Virus record (IMG/VR): IMGVR_UViG_2537561670_000005
Source of the DNA: a virus
Taxonomy: Duplodnaviria > Heunggongvirae > Uroviricota > Caudoviricetes
Reading direction: 5' to 3' (one strand)
Length of the DNA stretch: 11,526 nucleotides
Positions 1,945 through 11,283 of the stretch are shown here, piece by piece. The translations under genes and the position numbers were made by a program. Below the pieces are notes generated by a model. That model was not told the DNA's origin. It saw nothing but the letters and a program-made list of their open reading frames with translations, and made no database searches. Numbering within the stretch: position 1 is the stretch's first letter; every line of letters starts with the position of its first letter.

Positions 1945-2092
1945 CGGGTATCACAGATATGACAAACACGAAAAAAGCGGCCCCGATATGGAGCCGCCTT
2001 TCTGAACAATTAACCCGCTGCGCCTTATGTGTATATGATCCCAAACATAAGCACGGGGATGATAGCCGCTATCAGGCTGGTGGGCAATGCAA

Positions 2093-2266
2093 TCAGTCTG
2101 GTTCAGTTCGTTGCCATACCTGCAATGAGCGCTTTTCCCTGTATTCTTTAAGGAATTGCTCAAGGGCAAAAGCACATGGCGCGAATCTTTCTGATTCATG
2201 CTCTATCTTTCTGCGCCGTCTTTTCCGTGCCGGTGATAATGTTTTGGTCAATTCTTTATCGGTCAT
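2093..2266 (-). CDS. Hypothetical small basic protein (57 aa from internal ATG; 62 aa from ATG at 2281)
   Basis: ORF 42 nt downstream of the RHH gene on the same strand; AGGA 10-13 nt upstream of the ATG at 2266; contains a KRRRRK stretch. Weak support, overlaps an antisense open frame. Confidence 0.25.
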   Translation of the reverse strand: MTDKELTKTLSPARKRRRRKIEHESERFAPCAFALEQFLKEYREKRSLQVWQRTEPD

Positions 2267-2323
2267 TGTGTTGTCCTGCATAGCAATGCGCCGTAATACC
2301 TTACACCACGGCGCTGATGGTGA

Positions 2324-2629
2324 TTACTCTGGTTCTTTGGTCTTGCGGCGCTGGAGTTCTTCACGTGCGACAGTGACGAGCTGCCCGATCTCCTCGGCGG
2401 CTTTGATTCCGAGTTTTTCCACCTGCGCCAGTGCATCGTGCGAAGAAATCAGGGGGTTTTCTCCGCTTCCTTCTGCCTGGCGGCGGGCGATTTCACCGCG
2501 CATGGCGGTTACTATGAATCCGGCGTTGCTTTCACCGTCCAGTTTTACGGATTCCATGCCTTCAATAACATCATGCGGGATCCGAGCTGTCAGTGATTGT
2601 GATTTTGCGTTTTTTGAACCTGTAGCCAT
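2324..2629 (-). CDS. Ribbon-helix-helix (Arc/CopG-like) DNA-binding protein, putative repressor of the early operon
   Basis: ATG at 2629 with GAGAGGA RBS 7 nt upstream (101 aa; the track start at 2644 is a TTG). N-terminal beta-strand/helix/helix pattern SLTARIPHDVIEGMESVKLDGESNAGFIVTAMRGEIARR. Divergent from the early operon with palindromes in between. Confidence 0.75.
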   Translation of the reverse strand: MATGSKNAKSQSLTARIPHDVIEGMESVKLDGESNAGFIVTAMRGEIARRQAEGSGENPLISSHDALAQVEKLGIKAAEEIGQLVTVAREELQRRKTKEPE

Positions 2630-2650
2630 CTGTAATCCTCTCAATGAAAG

Positions 2651-2745
2651 TGTAAGACAATATACACATAAAAAGTCTTACATAAAAGCATTGACATGTA
2701 AGCCACCTATAAATAAAGTTACTTACACCTTGTTAATGCAAGGTG
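2651..2745. promoter_or_regulatory. Divergent promoter/operator region between RHH regulator and early operon
   Basis: Inverted repeats TGTAAGAC (2651-2658) / GTCTTACA (2675-2682) and CACCTTG (2726-2732) / CAAGGTG (2739-2745); a further TGTAAG half-site at 2697; candidate rightward promoter TTGACA (2691-2696)-N17-TAAAGT (2714-2719). Confidence 0.5.
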
Positions 2746-2825
2746 CAGAAACGACGAAACCCCGCACTGTAGGAGCAGTAACGGGGCTTCTAACCACCAA
2801 CGATAGCAAGATTATCGAGGCAGCT

Positions 2826-3026
2826 ATGAGAAATTATACCATACACCCGCAAGGGCGGGACTCGTACAACCTGAATAAATACATCTGGCGTTTTATCGCC
2901 CTGAGCACGGCACAACCGCGCGTGATTACCATCGAGGCCACCAGCGAACAGGAAGCGCGTCAGCAATCTCCGGCTGGCTGCGTGATGGTATTTGCTGCCC
3001 GTATTCGTCAGGGGGTAGGCTTATGA
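2826..3026 (+). CDS. Small protein (66 aa), possibly Icd-like host cell-division inhibitor family
   Basis: ATG at 2826 with GAGG RBS at 2817-2820; stop overlaps the next start (ATGA). The motif pattern ...YIWRFIAL...SEQEARQ...VMVFAARIRQ resembles what I recall of Icd-like proteins found next to AlpA/primase in P4-like islands; family assignment unverified. Confidence 0.6.
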   Translation: MRNYTIHPQGRDSYNLNKYIWRFIALSTAQPRVITIEATSEQEARQQSPAGCVMVFAARIRQGVGL

Positions 3027-3918: not shown

Positions 3919-4218
3919 ATGAAACTTAAATATTCTGGCTTAACTGCCAGTGGCAACACTCACCCTAAATTTACGCGCGGCGATATTTACCGCGACCAGT
4001 ACGGCGGCACGGTAATGATTAAGGGCGTGGCGGGACGGTGCGTAACTTACCGCCGTGAAGGTTACGAATATGATTGCGTGATGCCTGTTTATCAGTTCCG
4101 GCGTGATTTTTCTCTGGTACAGACCGCGCCGCATAACGTGCCCACCAGCAACGCCAGGGCACGGGCAAACATCCAGAAGCTGAAAACCATGATTAACGGA
4201 TTCAGGGGTAAAAAATGA
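3919..4218 (+). CDS. Hypothetical protein (99 aa), early operon, immediately upstream of and coupled to primase
   Basis: ATG at 3919 with GGAGA RBS at 3905-3909; stop overlaps the primase start (ATGA at 4215-4218). Confidence 0.65.
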   Translation: MKLKYSGLTASGNTHPKFTRGDIYRDQYGGTVMIKGVAGRCVTYRREGYEYDCVMPVYQFRRDFSLVQTAPHNVPTSNARARANIQKLKTMINGFRGKK

Positions 4219-5969
4219 AACTGGCACCGAACGTAAAACAGCAGTCACGCGGCATAAAACACAAAGGAACAGAAGTCATTATTTTTGCGGGTAGTGATGC
4301 CTGGGCACACGCGAAACAATGGCAGGAACATGATGCGCGTATGGCCGGAGATAATGAGCCTCCTGTGTGGCTTGGGGAGCAGCAGTTATCAGAACTGGAT
4401 AAGCTGCAAATTGTGCCGGAAGGCAGAAAATCCGTGCGCATATTCAGGGCCGGATATCTTGCGCCAGTAATGATAAAGGCGATTGGTCAGAAGCTGGCGG
4501 CGGCAGGCGTACAGGATGCAAATTTTTACCCTGATGGTATGCACGGTCAGAAGGTGGAGAACTGGCGCGAATATCTGGCCCGTGAGCGCCAGAATCTTTC
4601 TGATGGTCTGGTCATTGAGCTTCCGGTAAAGCAAAAGGCGCAACTTTCGCAGATGGCGGACAGTGAGCGCGCGCAGCTGCTTGCCGATCGCTTTGATGGC
4701 GTTTGCGTACATCCTGAAAGTGAAATCGTTCACGTATGGCGCGGCGGGGTATGGTGTCCGGTCAGCACAATGGAACTTAGCCGCGAAATGGTGGCGATCT
4801 ATTCAGAGCACAGGGCCACTTTCAGCAAGCGCGTAATCAATAACGCCGTGGAAGCGTTAAAAGTTATTGCCGAACCAATGGGCGAGCCGTCCGGCGATTT
4901 GCTGCCGTTCGCCAATGGTGCGCTTGACCTGAAAACGGGGGAATTTTCCCCGCACACGCCGGAGAACTGGATCACCACGCACAACGGCATTGAGTACACG
5001 CCACCAGCACCAGGGGAGAACATCCGCGATAACGCGCCAAACTTTCATAAATGGCTTGAGCACGCAGCCGGAAAAGACCCGCGCAAGATGATGCGTATAT
5101 GTGCCGCGCTGTACATGATTATGGCGAACCGGTACGACTGGCAGATGTTTATTGAGGCCACCGGAGACGGCGGGAGCGGTAAAAGTACATTCACACACAT
5201 AGCCAGCCTTCTGGCAGGGAAACAAAACACGGTAAGCGCTGAAATGACATCGCTTGATGATGCTGGTGGGCGTGCGCAGGTTGTCGGGAGTCGTCTTATC
5301 GTCCTGGCAGACCAGCCGAAATATACAGGCGAAGGAACGGGCATCAAGAAAATCACGGGCGGCGACCCCGTGGAAATTAACCCGAAATATGAAAAGCGTT
5401 TTACGGCGGTAATCAGGGCGGTGGTGCTGGCAACCAATAACAATCCGATGATATTCACCGAACGGGCCGGAGGTGTGGCACGTCGTCGGGTGATATTCCG
5501 GTTCGATAACATCGTAAGCGAGGCAGAAAAAGACAGGGAGCTACCGGAAAAGATCGCGGCTGAAATCCCTGTCATTATCCGCCGCTTGCTGGCGAACTTT
5601 GCCGACCCTGAAAAGGCACGGGCTTTACTCATTGAACAGCGTGACGGTGATGAAGCACTGGCAATAAAGCAACAGACGGATCCGGTTATTGAGTTTTGCC
5701 AGTTCCTGAATTTTCTGGAGGAAGCACGCGGCCTGATGATGGGCGGCGGTGGCGATTCAGTGAAGTACACGACCAGAAACAGCCTTTACCGCGTCTATCT
5801 GGCGTTTATGGCGTACGCAGGCAGGAGCAAACCGCTAAACGTAAATGACTTTGGCAAGGCTATGAAGCCAGCCGCGAAAGTTTACGGACATGAATATATT
5901 ACGCGGAAAGTTAAAGGAGTAACGCAGACTAACGCAATAACAACAGACGATTGCGACGCGTTTTTATAA
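4215..5969 (+). CDS. P4-family phage/plasmid primase-helicase (D5_N-like region plus SF3-type NTPase), replication initiator
   Basis: 584-aa ORF; Walker A GDGGSGKST (nt ~5163-5189), Walker B-like RLIVLADQP, and a D5-N-like stretch (FANGALDLKTGEFSPHTPENWITTHNGIEY). Followed directly by an iteron array, as for PICI pri-rep/ori. Confidence 0.93.
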   Translation: MKLAPNVKQQSRGIKHKGTEVIIFAGSDAWAHAKQWQEHDARMAGDNEPPVWLGEQQLSELDKLQIVPEGRKSVRIFRAGYLAPVMIKAIGQKLAAAGVQDANFYPDGMHGQKVENWREYLARERQNLSDGLVIELPVKQKAQLSQMADSERAQLLADRFDGVCVHPESEIVHVWRGGVWCPVSTMELSREMVAIYSEHRATFSKRVINNAVEALKVIAEPMGEPSGDLLPFANGALDLKTGEFSPHTPENWITTHNGIEYTPPAPGENIRDNAPNFHKWLEHAAGKDPRKMMRICAALYMIMANRYDWQMFIEATGDGGSGKSTFTHIASLLAGKQNTVSAEMTSLDDAGGRAQVVGSRLIVLADQPKYTGEGTGIKKITGGDPVEINPKYEKRFTAVIRAVVLATNNNPMIFTERAGGVARRRVIFRFDNIVSEAEKDRELPEKIAAEIPVIIRRLLANFADPEKARALLIEQRDGDEALAIKQQTDPVIEFCQFLNFLEEARGLMMGGGGDSVKYTTRNSLYRVYLAFMAYAGRSKPLNVNDFGKAMKPAAKVYGHEYITRKVKGVTQTNAITTDDCDAFL

Positions 5970-5982
5970 TTTGTTGCAATGG

Positions 5983-6208
5983 CTGTCTACCCTGTCTACC
6001 TGAGTAAAGAAAAATACATTTAATTCAGTGCATTAAGTTAGGTAGATAGCCTTTTTTTACTGTCTACCCACTATCTACCCTCTCTACCTGATTTTACCTG
6101 AATCAGACAGGGAGGTAGACACGGGGTAGATAGTGGATAAAAGCACTCTACCCCGCTGAAAGCCGCGCCATTACTGGCATGAGGGCCACTAAGGTAGATA
6201 GGTAGACA
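5983..6208. repeat. Iteron-type replication origin (about 12 copies of YCTACC / GGTAGA in both orientations flanking an AT-rich stretch)
   Basis: Tandem CTGTCTACC at 5983-5991 and 5992-6000; CTGTCTACCC 6060-6069; CTATCTACCC 6071-6080; TCTCTACC 6081-6088; CTCTACCCC 6146-6154; inverted GGTAGATAG 6041-6049, GGTAGACA 6114-6121, GGTAGATAG 6125-6133, GGTAGATAGGTAGACA 6193-6208; AT-rich 6001-6040. Confidence 0.75.
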
Positions 6209-6256: not shown

Positions 6257-6535
6257 ATGCACACTTCAGGGAAATTTAATAAATCACTCAAAAAACGCAG
6301 AGACAGAACAGAACCGAAATATCGCGCGTTAGACATGACAGAGCACGCTTTAAAGGTGGCAATCAGAACGATAGACCGACACGTAGGGGAAGGATACGCG
6401 AAGGAACATCCCGACCTGATAAGCGCATTCATGACCACAGCAGCGGCAAACTTTGCCACGCTGACAGAACGGGAGATTGCCGAAGCGGAACAGGTAACAA
6501 CCATCAACGTTAAAACCGGAGAGGTGGAATCATGA
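6257..6535 (+). CDS. Hypothetical protein (92 aa), translationally coupled to ssb
   Basis: ATG at 6257 with GAGGGGG RBS at 6239-6245; stop overlaps the ssb start (ATGA at 6532-6535). No recognisable family. Confidence 0.55.
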   Translation: MHTSGKFNKSLKKRRDRTEPKYRALDMTEHALKVAIRTIDRHVGEGYAKEHPDLISAFMTTAAANFATLTEREIAEAEQVTTINVKTGEVES

Positions 6536-6954
6536 CAGCACAGATAGCCGCTTACGGGCGGCTGGTGGACGACCCGCAGGTAAAACAGACCAGCAAGGGC
6601 ACACCGATGACGCTGGCGCGTATGGCGGTCCCCCTTCCGTGCAGCCAGGCAGATGACGGAACGGCGACGATGTGGTTATCCGTCCTGGCATTTGGCAGAC
6701 AGGCCGAAGCACTGGAAAGGCACCGCAAGGGTGAACTCCTGAGCGTGGCGGGTAACATGCAGATCAGCCAGTGGACTGGGCAGAACGGAGAAACGCGGCA
6801 GGGCTGGCAGGTTATCGCAGACAGTGTAATCAGTGCGCGAACGGCGCGACTGGGCGGCAAAAAAGGTCAACAGGGCCAGGCTACTGACGCGCTGAACAGG
6901 GCAAAACAACAGGCGGGGAATGATGATCCGTACGGGGATAACATACCGTTTTAA
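6532..6954 (+). CDS. ssb: Single-stranded DNA-binding protein (short phage/plasmid-type SSB)
   Basis: 140-aa ORF with GGAGAGGTGG RBS; OB-fold pattern comparable to E. coli SSB (G.L..DP..., W..V.AFG..AE......KG....V.G.......W); Gly/Gln-rich linker and canonical acidic C-terminal tail ...DDPYGDNIPF. Confidence 0.9.
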   Translation: MTAQIAAYGRLVDDPQVKQTSKGTPMTLARMAVPLPCSQADDGTATMWLSVLAFGRQAEALERHRKGELLSVAGNMQISQWTGQNGETRQGWQVIADSVISARTARLGGKKGQQGQATDALNRAKQQAGNDDPYGDNIPF

Positions 6955-6970
6955 GCGACGAGTGACAGAA

Positions 6971-6992
6971 GCCGGAGCAATCCGGCTTTTTT
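6971..6992 (+). terminator. Rho-independent terminator after ssb
   Basis: GCCGGA-gcaa-TCCGGC hairpin followed by TTTTTT. Confidence 0.75.
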
Positions 6993-7140
6993 ACGGGTCC
7001 TCCTGGCGGGGTGGGCCTGAACACGGGGCGGGAGGCGCGGAAAAAAGCGCATTTTTGTGATTTTATCGTCATCATCATCATGAGCGTAATTTATTGTTTT
7101 TAATTGTTTTGATGCAAAAAAGATGATGGTTGTGGTTAAT
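6993..7140 (+). other. Degenerate lambda-like cos-derived segment (cos-like site 1)
   Basis: acgggtcctcctgg (cosQ-like) ... acggggcgggaggcgcgg (cosN-like, GGGCGGGAGGCG in place of the lambda GGGCGGCGACCT) ... cgtcatcatcatcatgagcgtaatttattgtttttaatt, resembling the lambda cosB skeleton (cgtcataacttaatgtttttatttaaaa). The terminator plus cosQ module (6971-7006) is about 90% identical to 9411-9447. Confidence 0.45.
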
Positions 7141-7173
7141 TTTCGTTCGACATCTTTGCAGGCAGATAAAAAA

Positions 7174-7208
7174 GCCCGATAAGGTCAGAGGTGGCTTATC
7201 GGGCTTTT
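7174..7208. terminator. Bidirectional intrinsic terminator-like hairpin
   Basis: Perfect 10-bp stem GCCCGATAAG / CTTATCGGGC with an 11-nt loop, flanked by AAAAAA (5') and TTTT (3'). Confidence 0.5.
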
Positions 7209-7264
7209 GCATATGAGGCTTTTTGGTGCACTGACACACATGATCGGGATAATCATTTCATAAT

Positions 7265-7334
7265 TTGCAACGCAACTCAACATCATTGCACAAAATGCAA
7301 TCATGATTATAATCAGAGCTGGATGAACATCCAG
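7265..7334 (+). promoter_or_regulatory. Putative promoter/operator of the capsid operon
   Basis: TTGCAC (7286-7291)-N16-TATAAT (7308-7313); palindromes ATTGCA-caaaa-TGCAAT (7285-7301), TTGC-aac-GCAA (7265-7275) and CTGGATG-aa-CATCCAG (7319-7334) between the -10 and the RBS. Confidence 0.4.
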
Positions 7335-7369
7335 TTATGATTTTTTAAGTCAAAGAGGAATTTCTTACT

Positions 7370-7576
7370 ATGGCTGAAGAGAAAAAAGGCGGTGTTTCGG
7401 TGTACATAAGCCCCGACATCGTGAAGGCGCTCAAGGAACGCCACCAGCAGAACGTAAAAGCAGGCATTGCGGCAGGACTTGATCCGCTGGCGATGGTTGA
7501 GCCGTCAACAGGCTGGCAGGTACGCTCCTATTTACGCGCGGCGCTGGGCATAAATCAGACTCATGGGGGTGAATAA
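7370..7576 (+). CDS. Small protein (68 aa), possibly ribbon-helix-helix-like; first gene of the capsid operon
   Basis: ATG at 7370 with GAGGA RBS at 7355-7359; stop overlaps the capsid gene start (TAATG). GGVSVYISPDIVKALKERHQQ resembles a CopG/Arc-type strand-helix motif; assignment tentative. Confidence 0.55.
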   Translation: MAEEKKGGVSVYISPDIVKALKERHQQNVKAGIAAGLDPLAMVEPSTGWQVRSYLRAALGINQTHGGE

Positions 7577-8631
7577 TGGCAGTCAAAGCAATGGCACTTA
7601 ACACACACCAGCTTTTCGCGTACCTGAATCGCGAGGATATTGCGGAATTTAAATTTAGTCCGCTGTTTACCGCGCTGTTTTTCCCGAACGTGGCGACATT
7701 CAACACGCAAAACATCATGCTGGATACCCTGGACATTGAAGAAGTCACCATGTCGGCGTTTTGTTCGCCTATGGTGGGTAGCCAGGTTCAGCGCGATAAA
7801 GGGTACGAAACCAGCACGATTAAACCTGGCTACATGAAGCCAAAGCACGAAATCGATCCAACGAAAACCATCATGCGCATGGCTGGAGAAGATCCGGCAC
7901 AGCTTAACGACCCTACCTATCGCCGTATGCGCCTGATTACTGGCAATATGCGCCGCCAGATAAACGCCATAAAAGCGCGCGTGGAATGGCTGGCGGTAAA
8001 TGCGGTAACGACCGGAAAAAACATCATTGAGGGCGAAGGCATAGAGCGCTATGAAATCGACTGGAAGATACCGGAAAAAAACATCATAGAGCAGGCCGAC
8101 GGGAAAAAATGGTCAGAGCAGGACAAAGAAACCCACGATCCAATCTATGATATCGAACTATACGCCGATCAGGCTGGTTGCCCCGCAAACGTCATGATTA
8201 TGGGCGTTGAGGTATGGCGAACGTTACGCAGCTTTAAAAAATTCCGTGAGCTGTACGATCTTTCCCGTGGTTCAGAGTCCGCCGCAGAGCTGGCCTGTAA
8301 AAACCTGGGCGAAGTGGTGAGCTTTAAAGGCTATCTGGGCGATATTGCCCTTATCGTCTATTCCGGCAAATACACTGACAGCGACGGCACAGAAAAATAT
8401 TTCCTTGATCCTGATTTGCTGGTCCTGGGCAACACCAACAACAAAGGGCTGGTGGCCTATGGTGCGATTATGGATCAGGAAGCGGTAAGAACAGGCGCAA
8501 CGCAAAACATGTACTACCCGAAAAACTGGATTGAGGACGGCGATCCGGCGATTGAGTACGTGCAGACGCACAGCGCACCGCAGCCGGTTCCGGCAGATAT
8601 TCGCAAATTTGTTACCGTCAAAATTGCTTAA
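7576..8631 (+). CDS. Major capsid protein, lambda gpE-like
   Basis: 351-aa ORF alignable along its length to recalled lambda gpE (341 aa): FKFSPLF..LFF, KPGYMKPKHE, DP.YRR.R.I..NMR, W...DK.T.DP..DIE.YA, FRSFK, SYKG..GD.A..VYSG.Y, VLGNT...GL..YG, YPKNW...GDPA.E....SAP. Confidence 0.93.
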   Translation: MAVKAMALNTHQLFAYLNREDIAEFKFSPLFTALFFPNVATFNTQNIMLDTLDIEEVTMSAFCSPMVGSQVQRDKGYETSTIKPGYMKPKHEIDPTKTIMRMAGEDPAQLNDPTYRRMRLITGNMRRQINAIKARVEWLAVNAVTTGKNIIEGEGIERYEIDWKIPEKNIIEQADGKKWSEQDKETHDPIYDIELYADQAGCPANVMIMGVEVWRTLRSFKKFRELYDLSRGSESAAELACKNLGEVVSFKGYLGDIALIVYSGKYTDSDGTEKYFLDPDLLVLGNTNNKGLVAYGAIMDQEAVRTGATQNMYYPKNWIEDGDPAIEYVQTHSAPQPVPADIRKFVTVKIA

Positions 8632-8642
8632 CGGGGGATTCT

Positions 8643-8978
8643 ATGGACACTCCATACATTGAGTTATTTGCAGGCAGTCAGCAGGTATCCACGACGCTGG
8701 TACATTTTGCCGCTGATGCTGGCGTTATTCAGGAATTTACCCCGCTGATGCTGGCGGACAATGGCGAGTTTAAGCCGTGGGATGGTCAGGAATCTGGCAA
8801 GGCTGTTTATCTGACTTCGTACCTCGTGGACACGTCAAAGCAGAAATCAGCACAGTGTTACAAGACGGGGATATTCAATATTGCCGCCGTTAACTGGCCT
8901 GAGAGCGTCGACACCGATGCGAAAAAATGCGCCGCCTTTGCGGGTTCTGGCGTATCCGTTCAGCCGCTGGCCCGATAA
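8643..8978 (+). CDS. Head decoration protein, lambda gpD-like
   Basis: 111-aa ORF, GGGGGA RBS; aligns with recalled lambda gpD (110 aa): TPLMLD/TPLMLA, WDG, YKSG.F/YKTGIF, WPE, KK..AFAG..(I/V)S. Confidence 0.82.
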   Translation: MDTPYIELFAGSQQVSTTLVHFAADAGVIQEFTPLMLADNGEFKPWDGQESGKAVYLTSYLVDTSKQKSAQCYKTGIFNIAAVNWPESVDTDAKKCAAFAGSGVSVQPLAR

Positions 8979-8990
8979 GCAGGGGGAACG

Positions 8991-9404
8991 ATGGCAACGA
9001 ATGAAAGCATCATGGCGCTACCGCTGGCGAGTAAATTTAAAGCCGAAGCGCGGGCAATGGCTGACAGAGGTTTATCAACCTACGAGGCCGTATATCAACT
9101 CAACAAACTGGAAGAGCAGGACAAGCCGCGCGCTGATGCGATTATGGCGCTTCATGAGCATAAAGACTATCAGCCGCTGTTGCGTGCAATGGCAAACGTG
9201 CCTTGTATCGATGTTGATACGGCTAAAAACATCCTGAACATGACCATAGAGCAGGAACGCCCGAAGGTTGCACCAGAGCTTACCGCAGCCTTTGAAAACT
9301 TTATGGACATGCACAGCCCACAAACCGTATCAGCTGGCATGGCATACGATGGCAGAAACCCAGGCGATGACGGCGACATCGATCGCATACTGAAAACCAT
9401 CTGA
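8991..9404 (+). CDS. Hypothetical acidic protein (137 aa), last gene of the capsid operon; candidate scaffold/assembly factor
   Basis: ATG at 8991 with AGGGGGA RBS at 8981-8987; followed by a terminator; no recognisable family. Confidence 0.62.
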   Translation: MATNESIMALPLASKFKAEARAMADRGLSTYEAVYQLNKLEEQDKPRADAIMALHEHKDYQPLLRAMANVPCIDVDTAKNILNMTIEQERPKVAPELTAAFENFMDMHSPQTVSAGMAYDGRNPGDDGDIDRILKTI

Positions 9405-9410
9405 GACAAG

Positions 9411-9432
9411 GCCGGAGAAATCCGGCTTTTTT
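9411..9432 (+). terminator. Rho-independent terminator after the capsid operon
   Basis: GCCGGA-gaaa-TCCGGC hairpin followed by TTTTTT; near-identical to the terminator at 6971-6992. Confidence 0.75.
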
Positions 9433-9510
9433 GCGGGTCCTTCCTGGAATTATGGCCCGTTACGGGGCGGCGACCTCGCGGTTTTTCGCTATTTATGAGC
9501 TTTTTCAGGG
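9433..9510 (+). other. Lambda-type cos site 2 (cosQ + cosN, plus orientation, cosB truncated)
   Basis: gcgggtccttcctgg ... ttacGGGCGGCGACCTcgcggtttttcgctatttatgag matches the recalled lambda right-end/left-end junction (cgggtcctttccgg...ttacg|GGGCGGCGACCTcgcgggttttcgctatttatgaaaa); the 12-nt cohesive-end sequence is at 9465-9476. Downstream sequence diverges from lambda R sites. Confidence 0.8.
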
Positions 9511-9609: not shown

Positions 9610-10152
9610 ATGAAATCGCACCTGATGAACAAAAAAAACATGGCGAAAAGCTGCCGTGTAAGTGCGACAGCGTTCGACAAGTGGGGAGTGACTCCCGTTG
9701 AACGTAAAGGCCGTGAGGCGTTTTACGATGTTGCCAGCGTGATAGACAATAGGGTTAACAATGCAATTAGCCAGCTTACAAACGACAAAGGCGATATTGA
9801 TGATGATGAACTCTTACGAGTCAGGATCAGATTACTGACAGCACAGGCGGAGGCGCAGGAACTTAAAAACGAGCGCGATCGCGGTGACGTGATTGATACT
9901 GAGTTTTGCCTGTACGCGCTTTCAAAGCTGGCGAGTCAGATTTCATCAATCATGGACAGCCTCCCGCTTACTATGCAAAGGAGCTTCCCACAGATTACCC
10001 CCGCCATGCTGGATAGGCTTAAAAGGGAAGTGGTTAAAGCCTGTAATGCCAGTGCCAGAGTTGCCGACAACCTCCCACAGATACTGGCTGATTACTTGAA
10101 AGAAACAACCGGAAACGTACCGGAAAAGTTGCTACAGAAGAAAGGCGAGTAA
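9610..10152 (+). CDS. Terminase small subunit, lambda Nu1-like (start uncertain: 9610, 9625 or 9640)
   Basis: 180-aa ORF; strong similarity to recalled lambda Nu1: LTAQAEAQELKNERDRGDVIDTEFCLYALSKLASQISSIMDSLPLTMQRSFP vs RLTRAQADAQELKNARDSAEVVETAFCTFVLSRIAGEIASILDGLPLSVQRRFP; the N-terminus MNKKNMAK... (from 9625) parallels MEVNKKQLA..., and FYDVASVI parallels LYDSAAVI. Weak RBS at all candidate starts. Confidence 0.9.
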   Translation: MKSHLMNKKNMAKSCRVSATAFDKWGVTPVERKGREAFYDVASVIDNRVNNAISQLTNDKGDIDDDELLRVRIRLLTAQAEAQELKNERDRGDVIDTEFCLYALSKLASQISSIMDSLPLTMQRSFPQITPAMLDRLKREVVKACNASARVADNLPQILADYLKETTGNVPEKLLQKKGE

Positions 10153-10169
10153 CAGACGCGCAATTATTG

Positions 10170-10378
10170 AACAAAACTGAGAAACGACATGAAAGCGTCA
10201 TAAATCGCCATTTTAGATGATTACCGTGTCGTTTCTTTTTATTGTGTATCTATTTAAAAACAAATAGTTATGTTCGAGAAGTACCGACATGCTTTTTCCA
10301 GAAAAATTTTCATAAACAGATAAAAACCGCGAGGTCGCCGCCCCGTAACGGGTCCATAATTCCAGGAAGGACCCGACG
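10170..10378 (-). other. Lambda-type cos site 3 (cosQ + cosN + cosB-like R elements), minus orientation
   Basis: The reverse complement reads cgggtccttcctggaattatggacccgttacGGGCGGCGACCTcgcggtttttatctgtttatgaaaatttttctgg...ataactatttgtttttaaatag...aaaagaaacgacacgg...tgtcgtttctcagttttg, colinear with recalled lambda cosQ-cosN-cosB (tttatgaaaattttccgg, ataacttaatgtttttatttaaaa, aaaggaaacgacagg, tgtcgtttcctttctctgtttttg). Confidence 0.8.
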
Positions 10379-10408: not shown

Positions 10409-10690
10409 ATGACAGAAGCCGAAATACTGGGATTAATCCGCCGTGCTGGTGGAATCAGCCAGCAGACTGACGAACAGGCCACGCAGCCGGACAGCGTGAC
10501 AGCCGAAAATTATGCGCGTGTTGTTGCTGAGGTGATGCGCCGTGATGGTATCCAGCTTAATGATGTGGATATGCGCAACATACGGATCCGCGTTCTTGAA
10601 ATGCTGGCCTACAATCGCCGCGTGGCACTGTATCGGGAAACGGAGAAAATTACATACCACTGGAAGAAGCCGGAGCGGTTGCGGCGGTAA
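10409..10690 (+). CDS. Hypothetical protein (93 aa) between inverted cos site 3 and the terminal repeat array
   Basis: ATG at 10409 with weak RBS; basic C-terminus; no recognisable family. Confidence 0.5.
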   Translation: MTEAEILGLIRRAGGISQQTDEQATQPDSVTAENYARVVAEVMRRDGIQLNDVDMRNIRIRVLEMLAYNRRVALYRETEKITYHWKKPERLRR

Positions 10691-10863
10691 CTGGTTGATA
10701 TTTTCGAAATTCGCCAGCGGCGAACATCGGGGAAACCAGCCTAACCCGTTGATATTTTCGGGAACCTCAAATTGAGGAGGTCGGAAACATAACCCGTCAT
10801 ATTCTGGATGCTGATAATTACCACGCAGCCCATTAAGGCCTAACCCGTTGATTCTTTCGGAAA
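10688..10863 (+). repeat. Array of four ~21-bp direct repeats (consensus TAACCCGTTGATATTTTCGG) at ~50-bp spacing
   Basis: taactggttgatattttcgaaa (10688-10709), taacccgttgatattttcgggaa (10742-10764), taacccgtcatattctggatg (10790-10810), taacccgttgattctttcggaaa (10841-10863); a palindrome CCTCAA-a-TTGAGG lies at 10765-10777. Confidence 0.7.
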
Positions 10864-11283
10864 CAGCCATTGGCGTAATCCGGCGCGGTAACTTGCTGAA
10901 CTTAAAGCAAAGCGCAAAATTGCGCTGGCTGGTGGGCATGATGCCGATATGGTGATCCCCATAACGGAAATATCCACCAGCACGGCAACGGCAGAATAGC
11001 CACAACACAGAAAAACCACGAATATGGGGTTTTTGTTATGGCATGGGCATGATGACCGCCCCTGCTCTGAATGGTGGAAATCACCACGCAGATCATCCAC
11101 CAGCTTCGTTTTTATAAATTAAACATCCGGGAAAATCCGACCCTGAATTGTGCATTTTTTCAGCAAATCATTTTAGTTATACGTTTGGTTATACGGTTTA
11201 AAAGTTGAATCATATACATTATTTTAAATCATGAAGTTACACGCTCAATTAAACTACTCTCGTGGACCAAAAATCCCAAGAAA

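Follow-up and report, generated by a model that had tools for sequence, protein, structure and literature searches.

The third cos site and its boundaries

The window analysed here is the whole of an 11,526-nucleotide (nt) stretch of viral DNA (IMG/VR record IMGVR_UViG_2537561670_000005), and it is 100% identical to the Escherichia coli Nissle 1917 chromosome beside tRNA-Pro/yejM. With an integrase at one end, a primase, cohesive-end (cos) sites and a gene resembling that of a small terminase subunit (TerS), it is a Gram-negative phage-inducible chromosomal island of the EcCI type, and has been listed as EcCIATCC25922 (CP009072.1 106749-118031, 11.3 kb, yejM-luxR; Table S1 of PMC6092414). Between its SSB gene (6532-6954) and its lambda-type capsid operon (7370-9404) lies a third cos site, designated cos3 (6993-7157), which is the subject of this work. 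Judged by its sequence, cos3 is a complete cos, comprising cosQ, cosN and cosB, of a VT1-Sakai-like lambdoid phage lineage and not a diverged lambda cos. The initial annotation of this DNA had also placed a third cos-derived site here, which stands, but had taken it for a diverged lambda cos ending at 7140; the site instead appears intact from cosQ to the end of cosB, and the real unit reaches about 7157.

The other two sites of the island are of lambda type and flank its Nu1-like gene (9610-10152). The site 5' of this gene, cos1 (9411-9505, plus strand), consists of a hairpin, a cosQ at 9435-9441, an exact lambda cosN at 9465-9476 and an island-specific cosB, while cos2 (10303-10375, minus strand), 3' of the gene, carries the exact cosN on the minus strand. 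The two form a 72-nt inverted repeat (9434-9505 vs 10303-10375) of 88-96% complementarity, and were equated with cos1 and cos2 of the island EcCICFT073 via the deletion primers in PMC6092414.

Upstream, cos3 abuts a hairpin on the plus strand at 6969-6992 (hairpin 1; stem AAGCCGGA / TCCGGCTT, loop GCAA, followed by a T run), an intrinsic terminator that ends the replication/ssb module. It is a perfect 8-bp inverted repeat with an RNA folding energy of -18.3 kcal/mol (z = -4.1); a terminator scan missed it, as the stem absorbs part of the T run, but folding and an inverted-repeat search show it clearly. Hairpin 1 recurs 5' of cos1 at 9409-9432, and every related island examined has it 3' of ssb or perC. 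Hairpin and cosQ together make up a two-copy direct repeat, 6971-7001 against 9411-9441, in which 29 of 31 positions are identical (94%), confirming the earlier observation that the terminator-plus-cosQ block is repeated near 9411; in 11.5 kb, chance alone would not be expected to produce a 31-mer repeat with two or fewer mismatches.

The cosQ of cos3 (GGGTCCT, 6995-7001, plus strand) lies 31 nt, from its first base, to base 1 of cosN, the distance being 30 nt in lambda (NC_001416) and in cos1, and cos3 thereby has the arrangement of a lambda-like cos, in which a 7-bp cosQ stands about 30 nt 5' of the left nick. The variant cosN core noted by the initial annotation was likewise recovered: GGGCGGGAGGCG occurs once in the window, at 7026-7037 on the plus strand, whereas the exact lambda cosN GGGCGGCGACCT occurs only at 9465-9476(+) and 10332-10343(-). 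Bases 1-6 of the core are those of lambda (GGGCGG), and the five differences fall at bases 7, 8, 9, 10 and 12. The presumed nick positions, placed by homology, retain the CG dinucleotide on both sides (ACACG/GGGCGG...GGCG/CGG, that is ACACG/GGGCGGGAGGCG/CGG, with slashes at the nicks), so that the conserved left half, CG flanks and free right half of a lambda-like cosN are all present.

The phage-type cosB follows at 7038-7157 on the plus strand and is 86-90% identical to the cosB of VT1-Sakai-lineage phages. It begins with an A-run/GCGC palindrome (7038-7053) and continues with one or more left putative TerS sites (CATCATC, 7070-7079), a site resembling that of integration host factor (IHF) on the minus strand (7087-7099, 12/13 match, offset 62 from cosN) and an inverted right putative TerS site (GATGATG, 7122-7128), and it closes with a conserved distal block, TTTTCGTTCGACATCTTT (7140-7157). 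The phage, too, has CATCATC and GATGATG as an inverted pair, spaced 42-45 nt. Among 101 unique family sites, a perfect IHF consensus occurs in 44, in each case at 61-64 nt from cosN and at no other place; across the whole window, IHF-like matches are not enriched (10 found, 11 expected).

The phage homology stops at 7157/7158, just 5' of a strong, bidirectional-looking terminator at 7163-7215 (hairpin 2), a 21-nt inverted repeat with a folding energy of -25.1 kcal/mol (z = -3.8). At hairpin 2 begins the lambda-type leader of the capsid operon, which EcCICFT073 also has, with 97% identity over 7168-7400. The capsid operon is thus bracketed by direct cos-derived repeats, as had been proposed, with repeat starts 2,440 bp and cosN starts 2,439 bp apart.

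Other readings of the segment were rejected. It is overlapped by minus-strand open reading frames (6881-7081 and 7078-7239), and some records carry a hypothetical coding sequence over the phage cos; a protein-coding reading was dismissed on two grounds: the cosN core comes in lengths of 12, 13 and 14 nt, which would break the frame, and one of the frames runs antisense into ssb. A structured RNA was sought in Rfam at E values up to 1, which yielded sub-threshold noise only, and the segment sits between two terminators.

Relation to phage cos sites

A megablast search with 6800-7400 matched E. coli O157:H7 and other genomes over 6988-7157 and nowhere else, at 88-89% identity. The matched phage loci contain, in order, Rz, the cos-like segment, a DUF1441 gene, a gpA-type large terminase gene, a portal gene and a ClpP-capsid fusion, and the matched segment sits where lambda has its cos. 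In a blastn search of phages, the same segment was 87-91% identical over 169-170 nt to nine Shiga toxin (Stx)-converting phage records, namely VT1-Sakai and eight Stx2a- or Stx2d-converting phages, which also carry it between Rz and the terminase genes; lambda was absent from these matches. Hundreds of E. coli prophages match as well. With one limit within about 8 nt of cosQ and the other about 70 nt short of the phage terS start, the homology covers exactly a cos unit.

A shuffle-controlled alignment separates the candidate sources of the cosB. Positions 7038-7157 are 86% identical to the cosB of a Stx1 prophage, with none of 300 shuffles as good, whereas shuffles scored at least as well in 262 of 300 cases for the lambda cosB and in 98 of 300 for the cos1 cosB, so that no similarity to either was detectable. 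These alignments and the lack of lambda among the phage matches rule out a lambda-derived cosB, and the degenerate lambda cosB skeleton described initially was not borne out.

In classifying the site, cos3 has neither the exact GGGCGGCGACCT core nor the lambda R-site or cos1-type cosB of a cos of lambda/phi80/21 specificity. It also does not have the island-specific cosB adjoining an rpp or terS-like gene that characterizes sites dependent on Rpp or a TerS-like protein, as it sits 2.4 kb 5' of the Nu1-like gene with the capsid operon and cos1 in between; the suggestion of a satellite-specific packaging site is contradicted by its phage-type cosB, which is unlike the island-specific one beside the Nu1-like gene. 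Homology to the VT1-Sakai-type cos extends over the full length from cosQ to the end of cosB, but the site does not lie directly 5' of a DUF1441 terS and a gpA-type terL, since hairpin 2 and the capsid operon follow, and a DUF1441 gene is not present in the window. The missing terS-terL context is expected for a captured site, and cos3 is homologous to the phage site without belonging to a phage. On the strength of these alignments, homology of 6993-7157 to the cos of the VT1-Sakai lineage appears practically certain. The literature searched contained nothing relevant on DUF1441 terminases, and a scan of species-representative genomes gave nine matches, all in phage or unrelated contexts, with none on islands outside E. 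coli.

Conservation of cos3 and of its position in related islands

The islands compared with the window (EcCIDi14, EcCIIHE3034, 2011C-3911, SW4848 and L109) have unrelated integrases and different replication genes, and cos3 is the best-conserved stretch among them. Its identity to the window is 98.2-100%, compared to 94-96% for the capsid gene, 93-96% for the gene of the 137-amino-acid (aa) protein p137, 85-97% for cos1 and 86% for ssb in 2011C-3911.

To place cos3 among its phage relatives, 120 viral contigs with the cosQ-cosN pattern of the family were retrieved and the context of each site was typed by tblastn; the reference for decay was the consensus of ten phage-context copies of the same cosB lineage, aligned over 170 columns, of which 136 are invariant and 34 variable. 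cos3 differs from this consensus at 21 of the 170 columns, and 19 of these differences fall in phage-variable columns (binomial P = 7e-12). Its identity to the individual phage copies, 87-90%, lies inside the phage-to-phage range of 84-100%. The cosQ is invariant in the ten phage copies, and in cos3 it is intact along with cosN bases 1-6 and the nick-flanking CG, variation within cosN being limited to bases 7-12; base 8 is an A, which is seen in none of the ten. Across 21 sites of the VT1-Sakai lineage, cosN bases 1-6 are constant, bases 7-11 occur as six alleles and core length is 12-13 nt, a pattern that matches the functional asymmetry published for lambda cosN, the right half of which tolerates change (PMC4669245). 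Measured against the phage copies, cos3 is well preserved and not decayed.

The cosN right half also varies among cos3 copies that are otherwise 98-100% identical, reading GGGCGGGAGGCG in the window and GGGCGGGAAGCG and a 13-nt GGGCGGAGGGGCG in L015 and L130. Repair of mismatched ends might have left this clustering of variation in the cohesive-end bases.

The position just 3' of the ssb terminator regularly holds a cos in related islands. DUF1441-type islands have the order ssb, cos, ClpP/capsid, cos, DUF1441 and p93 (the gene of a 93-aa protein), whereas helper-embedded islands, which are located inside the TerL gene of VT1-Sakai-lineage prophages, have ssb, cos, ClpP/capsid, cos and p93, and hybrids of the window type have ssb, cos3, the lambda-type capsid operon, cos1, the Nu1-like gene, cos2 and p93. 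Sites in the post-ssb slot carry a full phage-type cosB drawn from at least four phage lineages and are 89-99% identical to the best phage; in L005, L032, L076 and L103 the cosB belongs to other phage lineages than that of cos3, at 93-99% identity. The cos that adjoins an island's own DUF1441 gene is mostly just 76-80% like any phage. The closest copies of cos3 (92% overall, with a cosB 92-95% identical to phage) are the downstream, only intact cos of helper-embedded islands that are without any TerS-like gene. These copies provide the best comparative argument, as they suggest that helper-embedded islands are packaged from such a cos.

Several islands record rearrangement at cos sequences. 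In L076, an ssb whose protein is 100% identical to that of the window is followed by a cos, a ClpP-capsid gene and a cos with a window-type cosB. In L029 (site at 6347), the capsid gene was lost exactly between two direct cos copies, giving ssb-cos-DUF1441. In EcCICFT073 (L009 8231-8270, against 6969-7180 of the window), perC follows ssb, and then come hairpin 1, only GCGCCCA, and hairpin 2. The T run is followed by a GCG, as found at the start of GCGGGTCCT, and by this comparison the junction may be the deletion scar of a lost cos3-like site. As there is no cos between its hairpins 1 and 2, only two have been reported for EcCICFT073.

The IMG/VR contig L103, with sites at 6481, 9018 and 307(-), is a reciprocal hybrid island with the order ssb, DUF1441-type cos, ClpP/capsid fusion, cos, Nu1-like gene (83%), inverted DUF1441-type cos and p93. 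The cos 5' of its Nu1-like gene has the core GGGCGGCAGACG and a lambda-like right flank. L103 shows that capsid and terS-like modules have been shuffled independently, with cos at the joints.

Proposed role of cos3

On the comparisons above, cos3 is probably, though by no means assuredly, a working cos of a second specificity that mimics that of a helper phage, needs no island factor and was acquired by recombination. In a cell with a replicating island, the unmodified terminase of a growing VT1-Sakai-lineage phage would bind the phage-identical cosB and nick the adjacent cosN, and packaging of island concatemers would then proceed rightward and end at the next cos3 when the head is nearly full. 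Four 11.3-kb units would amount to about 45 kb, near the 46-48 kb of VT1-Sakai-type phages. This route would require no island-encoded specificity factor, while cos1 would serve lambda/phi80/21-type helpers through the island's own TerS-like protein, and the island would thus be packaged with either of two independent specificities, which would widen its range of helpers. Homologous recombination in the conserved cosQ-cosN and distal cosB blocks, which are common to phages, helper-embedded islands and other islands, would be the most likely way for cos3 to have arrived. Recombination between cos sequences does occur, because the capsid gene of L029 was lost between direct cos copies; the earlier proposal of recombination between cos regions holds as a part of the history of the site, to which the possible scar in EcCICFT073 would also belong.

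A number of observations weigh against a working cos3. Two private changes of the site are at phage-invariant positions, 7105 T and 7144 C; the former is also found in 4 of 9 copies from helper-embedded islands, and at 7144, among the other island copies aligned, L134, L131 and L109 have the phage T and L133 and L130 share the C of the window. The high identity of cos3 across mosaic islands could stem from recent recombinational spread rather than selection. In SW4848 (L131) the cosQ has changed from GGGTCCT to GGGGCCT by a T-to-G substitution, the post-ssb cosQ of several helper-embedded islands (L004, L059, L118 and L026) has decayed to AGGTACT, the post-ssb site of L024 has a mutated cosN left half, and L127 has lost its post-ssb site outright, which means that islands can, in some contexts, do without the slot. 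Among the 60 best-matching genomes with the island, 58 have no second copy of a cos3-type cos, and the cognate prophage is therefore rarely resident; co-occurrence of island and prophage thus gives no support for current use of cos3 in those 58 strains. Many of the 60 genomes are clonal (Nissle 1917 and ATCC 25922), which weakens the conservation argument as well. No mapped cohesive ends of the VT1-Sakai-like lineage were found in the literature searched; the single Stx1 phage in it whose termini have been mapped, Lys8385Vzw, has 3' ends that are unrelated in sequence.

The alternative that deserves the most attention, although we consider it unlikely, is that cos3 is an inert recombination relic with no role in the island, structurally intact only through recent acquisition and bound to decay. 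It would have originated when a lambda-type cassette of capsid genes, cos1, Nu1-like gene and cos2 became fused to the ssb-cos end of an island of the DUF1441 or the helper-embedded type, and the island family is indeed highly mosaic with cos at module borders, as illustrated by the arrangement in L076 and by the deletion in L029. The decaying and lost post-ssb sites listed above and the near absence of co-resident cognate prophages agree with this, as does the efficient transfer of EcCICFT073 with cos1 and cos2 only (PMC6092414). An inert relic is harder to reconcile with cos3 being the most conserved stretch among islands with capsid genes 4-6% diverged, and with the way its differences from phage copies avoid phage-invariant columns. 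A single accidental relic is also hard to sustain because, in islands independent of one another, the same slot is occupied by full phage-type cosB from at least four lineages.

Two further explanations are much less probable, each resting on a different use of the site. Very improbable is an interference decoy, in which a phage-identical cos would titrate a VT1-Sakai-type terminase or misdirect it, for example into cleaving or packaging island or chromosomal DNA unproductively, and so protect the host population rather than spread the island. Helper interference is a general property of these islands (PMC6739421), cos3 is phage-type and independent of an island factor, and island strains, being mostly without a cognate prophage, would meet it only as an infecting phage; yet one extra cos against hundreds of replicating phage genomes would be weak unless the island replicates, in which case island packaging follows anyway and the decoy becomes a by-product of packaging through cos3, and the present data lend it no support. 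Still more improbable is an auxiliary site, at which a lambda/phi80/21-type terminase that initiated at cos1 would end, or which the Nu1-like protein would use. Its cosQ and cosN bases 1-6 are identical to those of lambda, with a difference of 1 nt in the spacing and with the CG flanks retained; terminases of the lambda type lack specificity for cosN and terminate without need of cosB (PMC4669245), and mismatched-end repair could be reflected in the hypervariable cosN right half among near-identical copies. However, the cosB of cos3 is dissimilar to that of cos1, which adjoins the Nu1-like gene, and initiation at cos3 by the island's own factor is unlikely because the two are unrelated. Ends made at cos1 and cos3 would moreover mismatch at 5 of 12 bases, where two mismatches cost about a fourfold loss of yield (PMC4669245), and EcCICFT073 transfers efficiently without cos3.

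Returning to cos3 as a working helper-type cos, a broader and more tentative proposal, which we hold to be possible but would not expect to be borne out, is that the post-ssb slot is a swappable helper-range cassette within a two-tier packaging scheme, one tier being a helper-mimic cos and the other a cos read via the island's Rpp or TerS-like protein. Recombination would exchange the mimic between the cosQ-cosN block, which is conserved, and the distal TTTTTTGTTCGACATC; an unmodified phage terminase would use it, and the two tiers would target different phage lineages in the island of the window. Occasional termination at a heterologous cos would then explain the hypervariable cosN right half.

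If cos3 works, helper choice would also be made through an exchangeable helper cos, beside the Rpp-TerS route of EcCICFT073, and one island would have two unrelated helper ranges. The island of Nissle 1917 and ATCC 25922 would be open to mobilisation both by Shiga-toxin-type lambdoid phages and by phages of lambda/phi80 type. The island is also present in uropathogenic lineages, which would make this relevant to gene flow among commensal, probiotic and Shiga toxin-producing E. coli populations. The comparison further delimits the likely cos of a large and medically important phage lineage, with its cosQ, its 12-13-nt cosN with a free right half and its putative IHF site at +62.

Remaining features of the island

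The integrase occupies 1-1242 and a D5-type primase 4215-5969, and the capsid operon encodes a 68-aa protein, a lambda E-like capsid protein, a D-like decoration protein and p137. The 180-aa product of the gene at 9610-10152, annotated as "terminase small subunit", matches Pfam Phage_Nu1 over residues 33-148, and a sequence search of the PDB gave no match for it at E values up to 0.01; the gene enclosed by cos1 and cos2 in EcCICFT073 encodes the 144-aa RppA instead. The p93 gene lies in the right part of the island.

A 355-aa open reading frame at 1959-3026 has no Pfam match. It is probably not real, because RefSeq, whose annotation is available for the identical Nissle 1917 locus, places there a truncated Icd-like pseudogene (1959-2438) and an opposite-strand YlcI/YnfO gene (2324-2629). 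Directly 3' of the primase gene are two copies of CTGTCTACCCTGTCTACCTGA, 90% identical, at 5983-6003 and 6071-6091, which look like iterons of the replication origin of the island, an origin located 3' of pri by a 2018 paper (PMC6092414). Near the right end of the island, 3' of the p93 gene, are three direct repeats resembling GCCTAACCCGTTGATATTTTCGG (10685-10711, 10739-10765 and 10838-10864), in each of which the minus strand matches the IHF consensus perfectly (10688, 10742 and 10841), and these may be part of the recombination (attachment, att) apparatus.

Comparison with known packaging sites

Among the nearest described systems is EcCICFT073, for which two lambda-type sites, cos1 and cos2, have been described (PMC6092414, PMC6739421). 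Loss of both abolishes lambda/phi80-mediated transfer (PMC6092414), and cos1, with an island-specific cosB, is read by the Rpp-TerS complex (PMC6092414, PMC6739421, PMC9026076). As there, cos3 is a cos on a Gram-negative phage-inducible island, and it has the hairpin-plus-cosQ block and the orientation of cos1. Those sites have the exact lambda cosN, whereas the cosN of cos3 is a variant and its cosB comes from another lineage, being of helper-phage type, and where the window has cos3, 5' of the capsid operon, EcCICFT073 has perC. The literature searched held nothing relevant on a third cos in such islands.

In comparison to the cos of VT1-Sakai and other Stx phages, cos3 has the same cosQ, 31-nt cosQ-cosN spacing, cosN left half, CATCATC/GATGATG pair and distal block. 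It differs in being followed by a terminator and a lambda-type capsid operon rather than by terS-terL, and in abutting the island ssb terminator upstream, where the phage site abuts Rz. Compared with the lambda cos, it has a 7-bp cosQ about 30 nt before the nick, a 12-nt core with a constrained left half, and a cosB in which inverted putative TerS sites surround an IHF-like site. However, 5 of the 12 cosN bases differ from lambda, there is no sequence similarity to the R3-I1-R2-R1 cosB, and the lambda small terminase is of the Phage_Nu1 family, whereas the cognate small terminase of the cos3 lineage is a DUF1441 protein.

Satellites that copy a packaging site of their helper offer a functional parallel. 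SaPIbov5 reportedly carries the cos of its helper and combines two packaging routes. The helper-embedded island 11capE shares 258 bp, 90% identical, with the cos region of its helper (PMC10111431). An island that combines a helper-mimic cos with an island-specific cos for different phage lineages, and in which the mimic has an exchangeable slot of its own, is not described in the literature searched. Like SaPIbov5 and 11capE, the island of the window would hold a copy of the helper's own packaging site for which no satellite specificity factor is needed. Unlike them, it combines the phage mimic with a factor-dependent cos that belongs to a different phage lineage, and the mimic occupies a separate, conserved slot in which the cosB differs from island to island.

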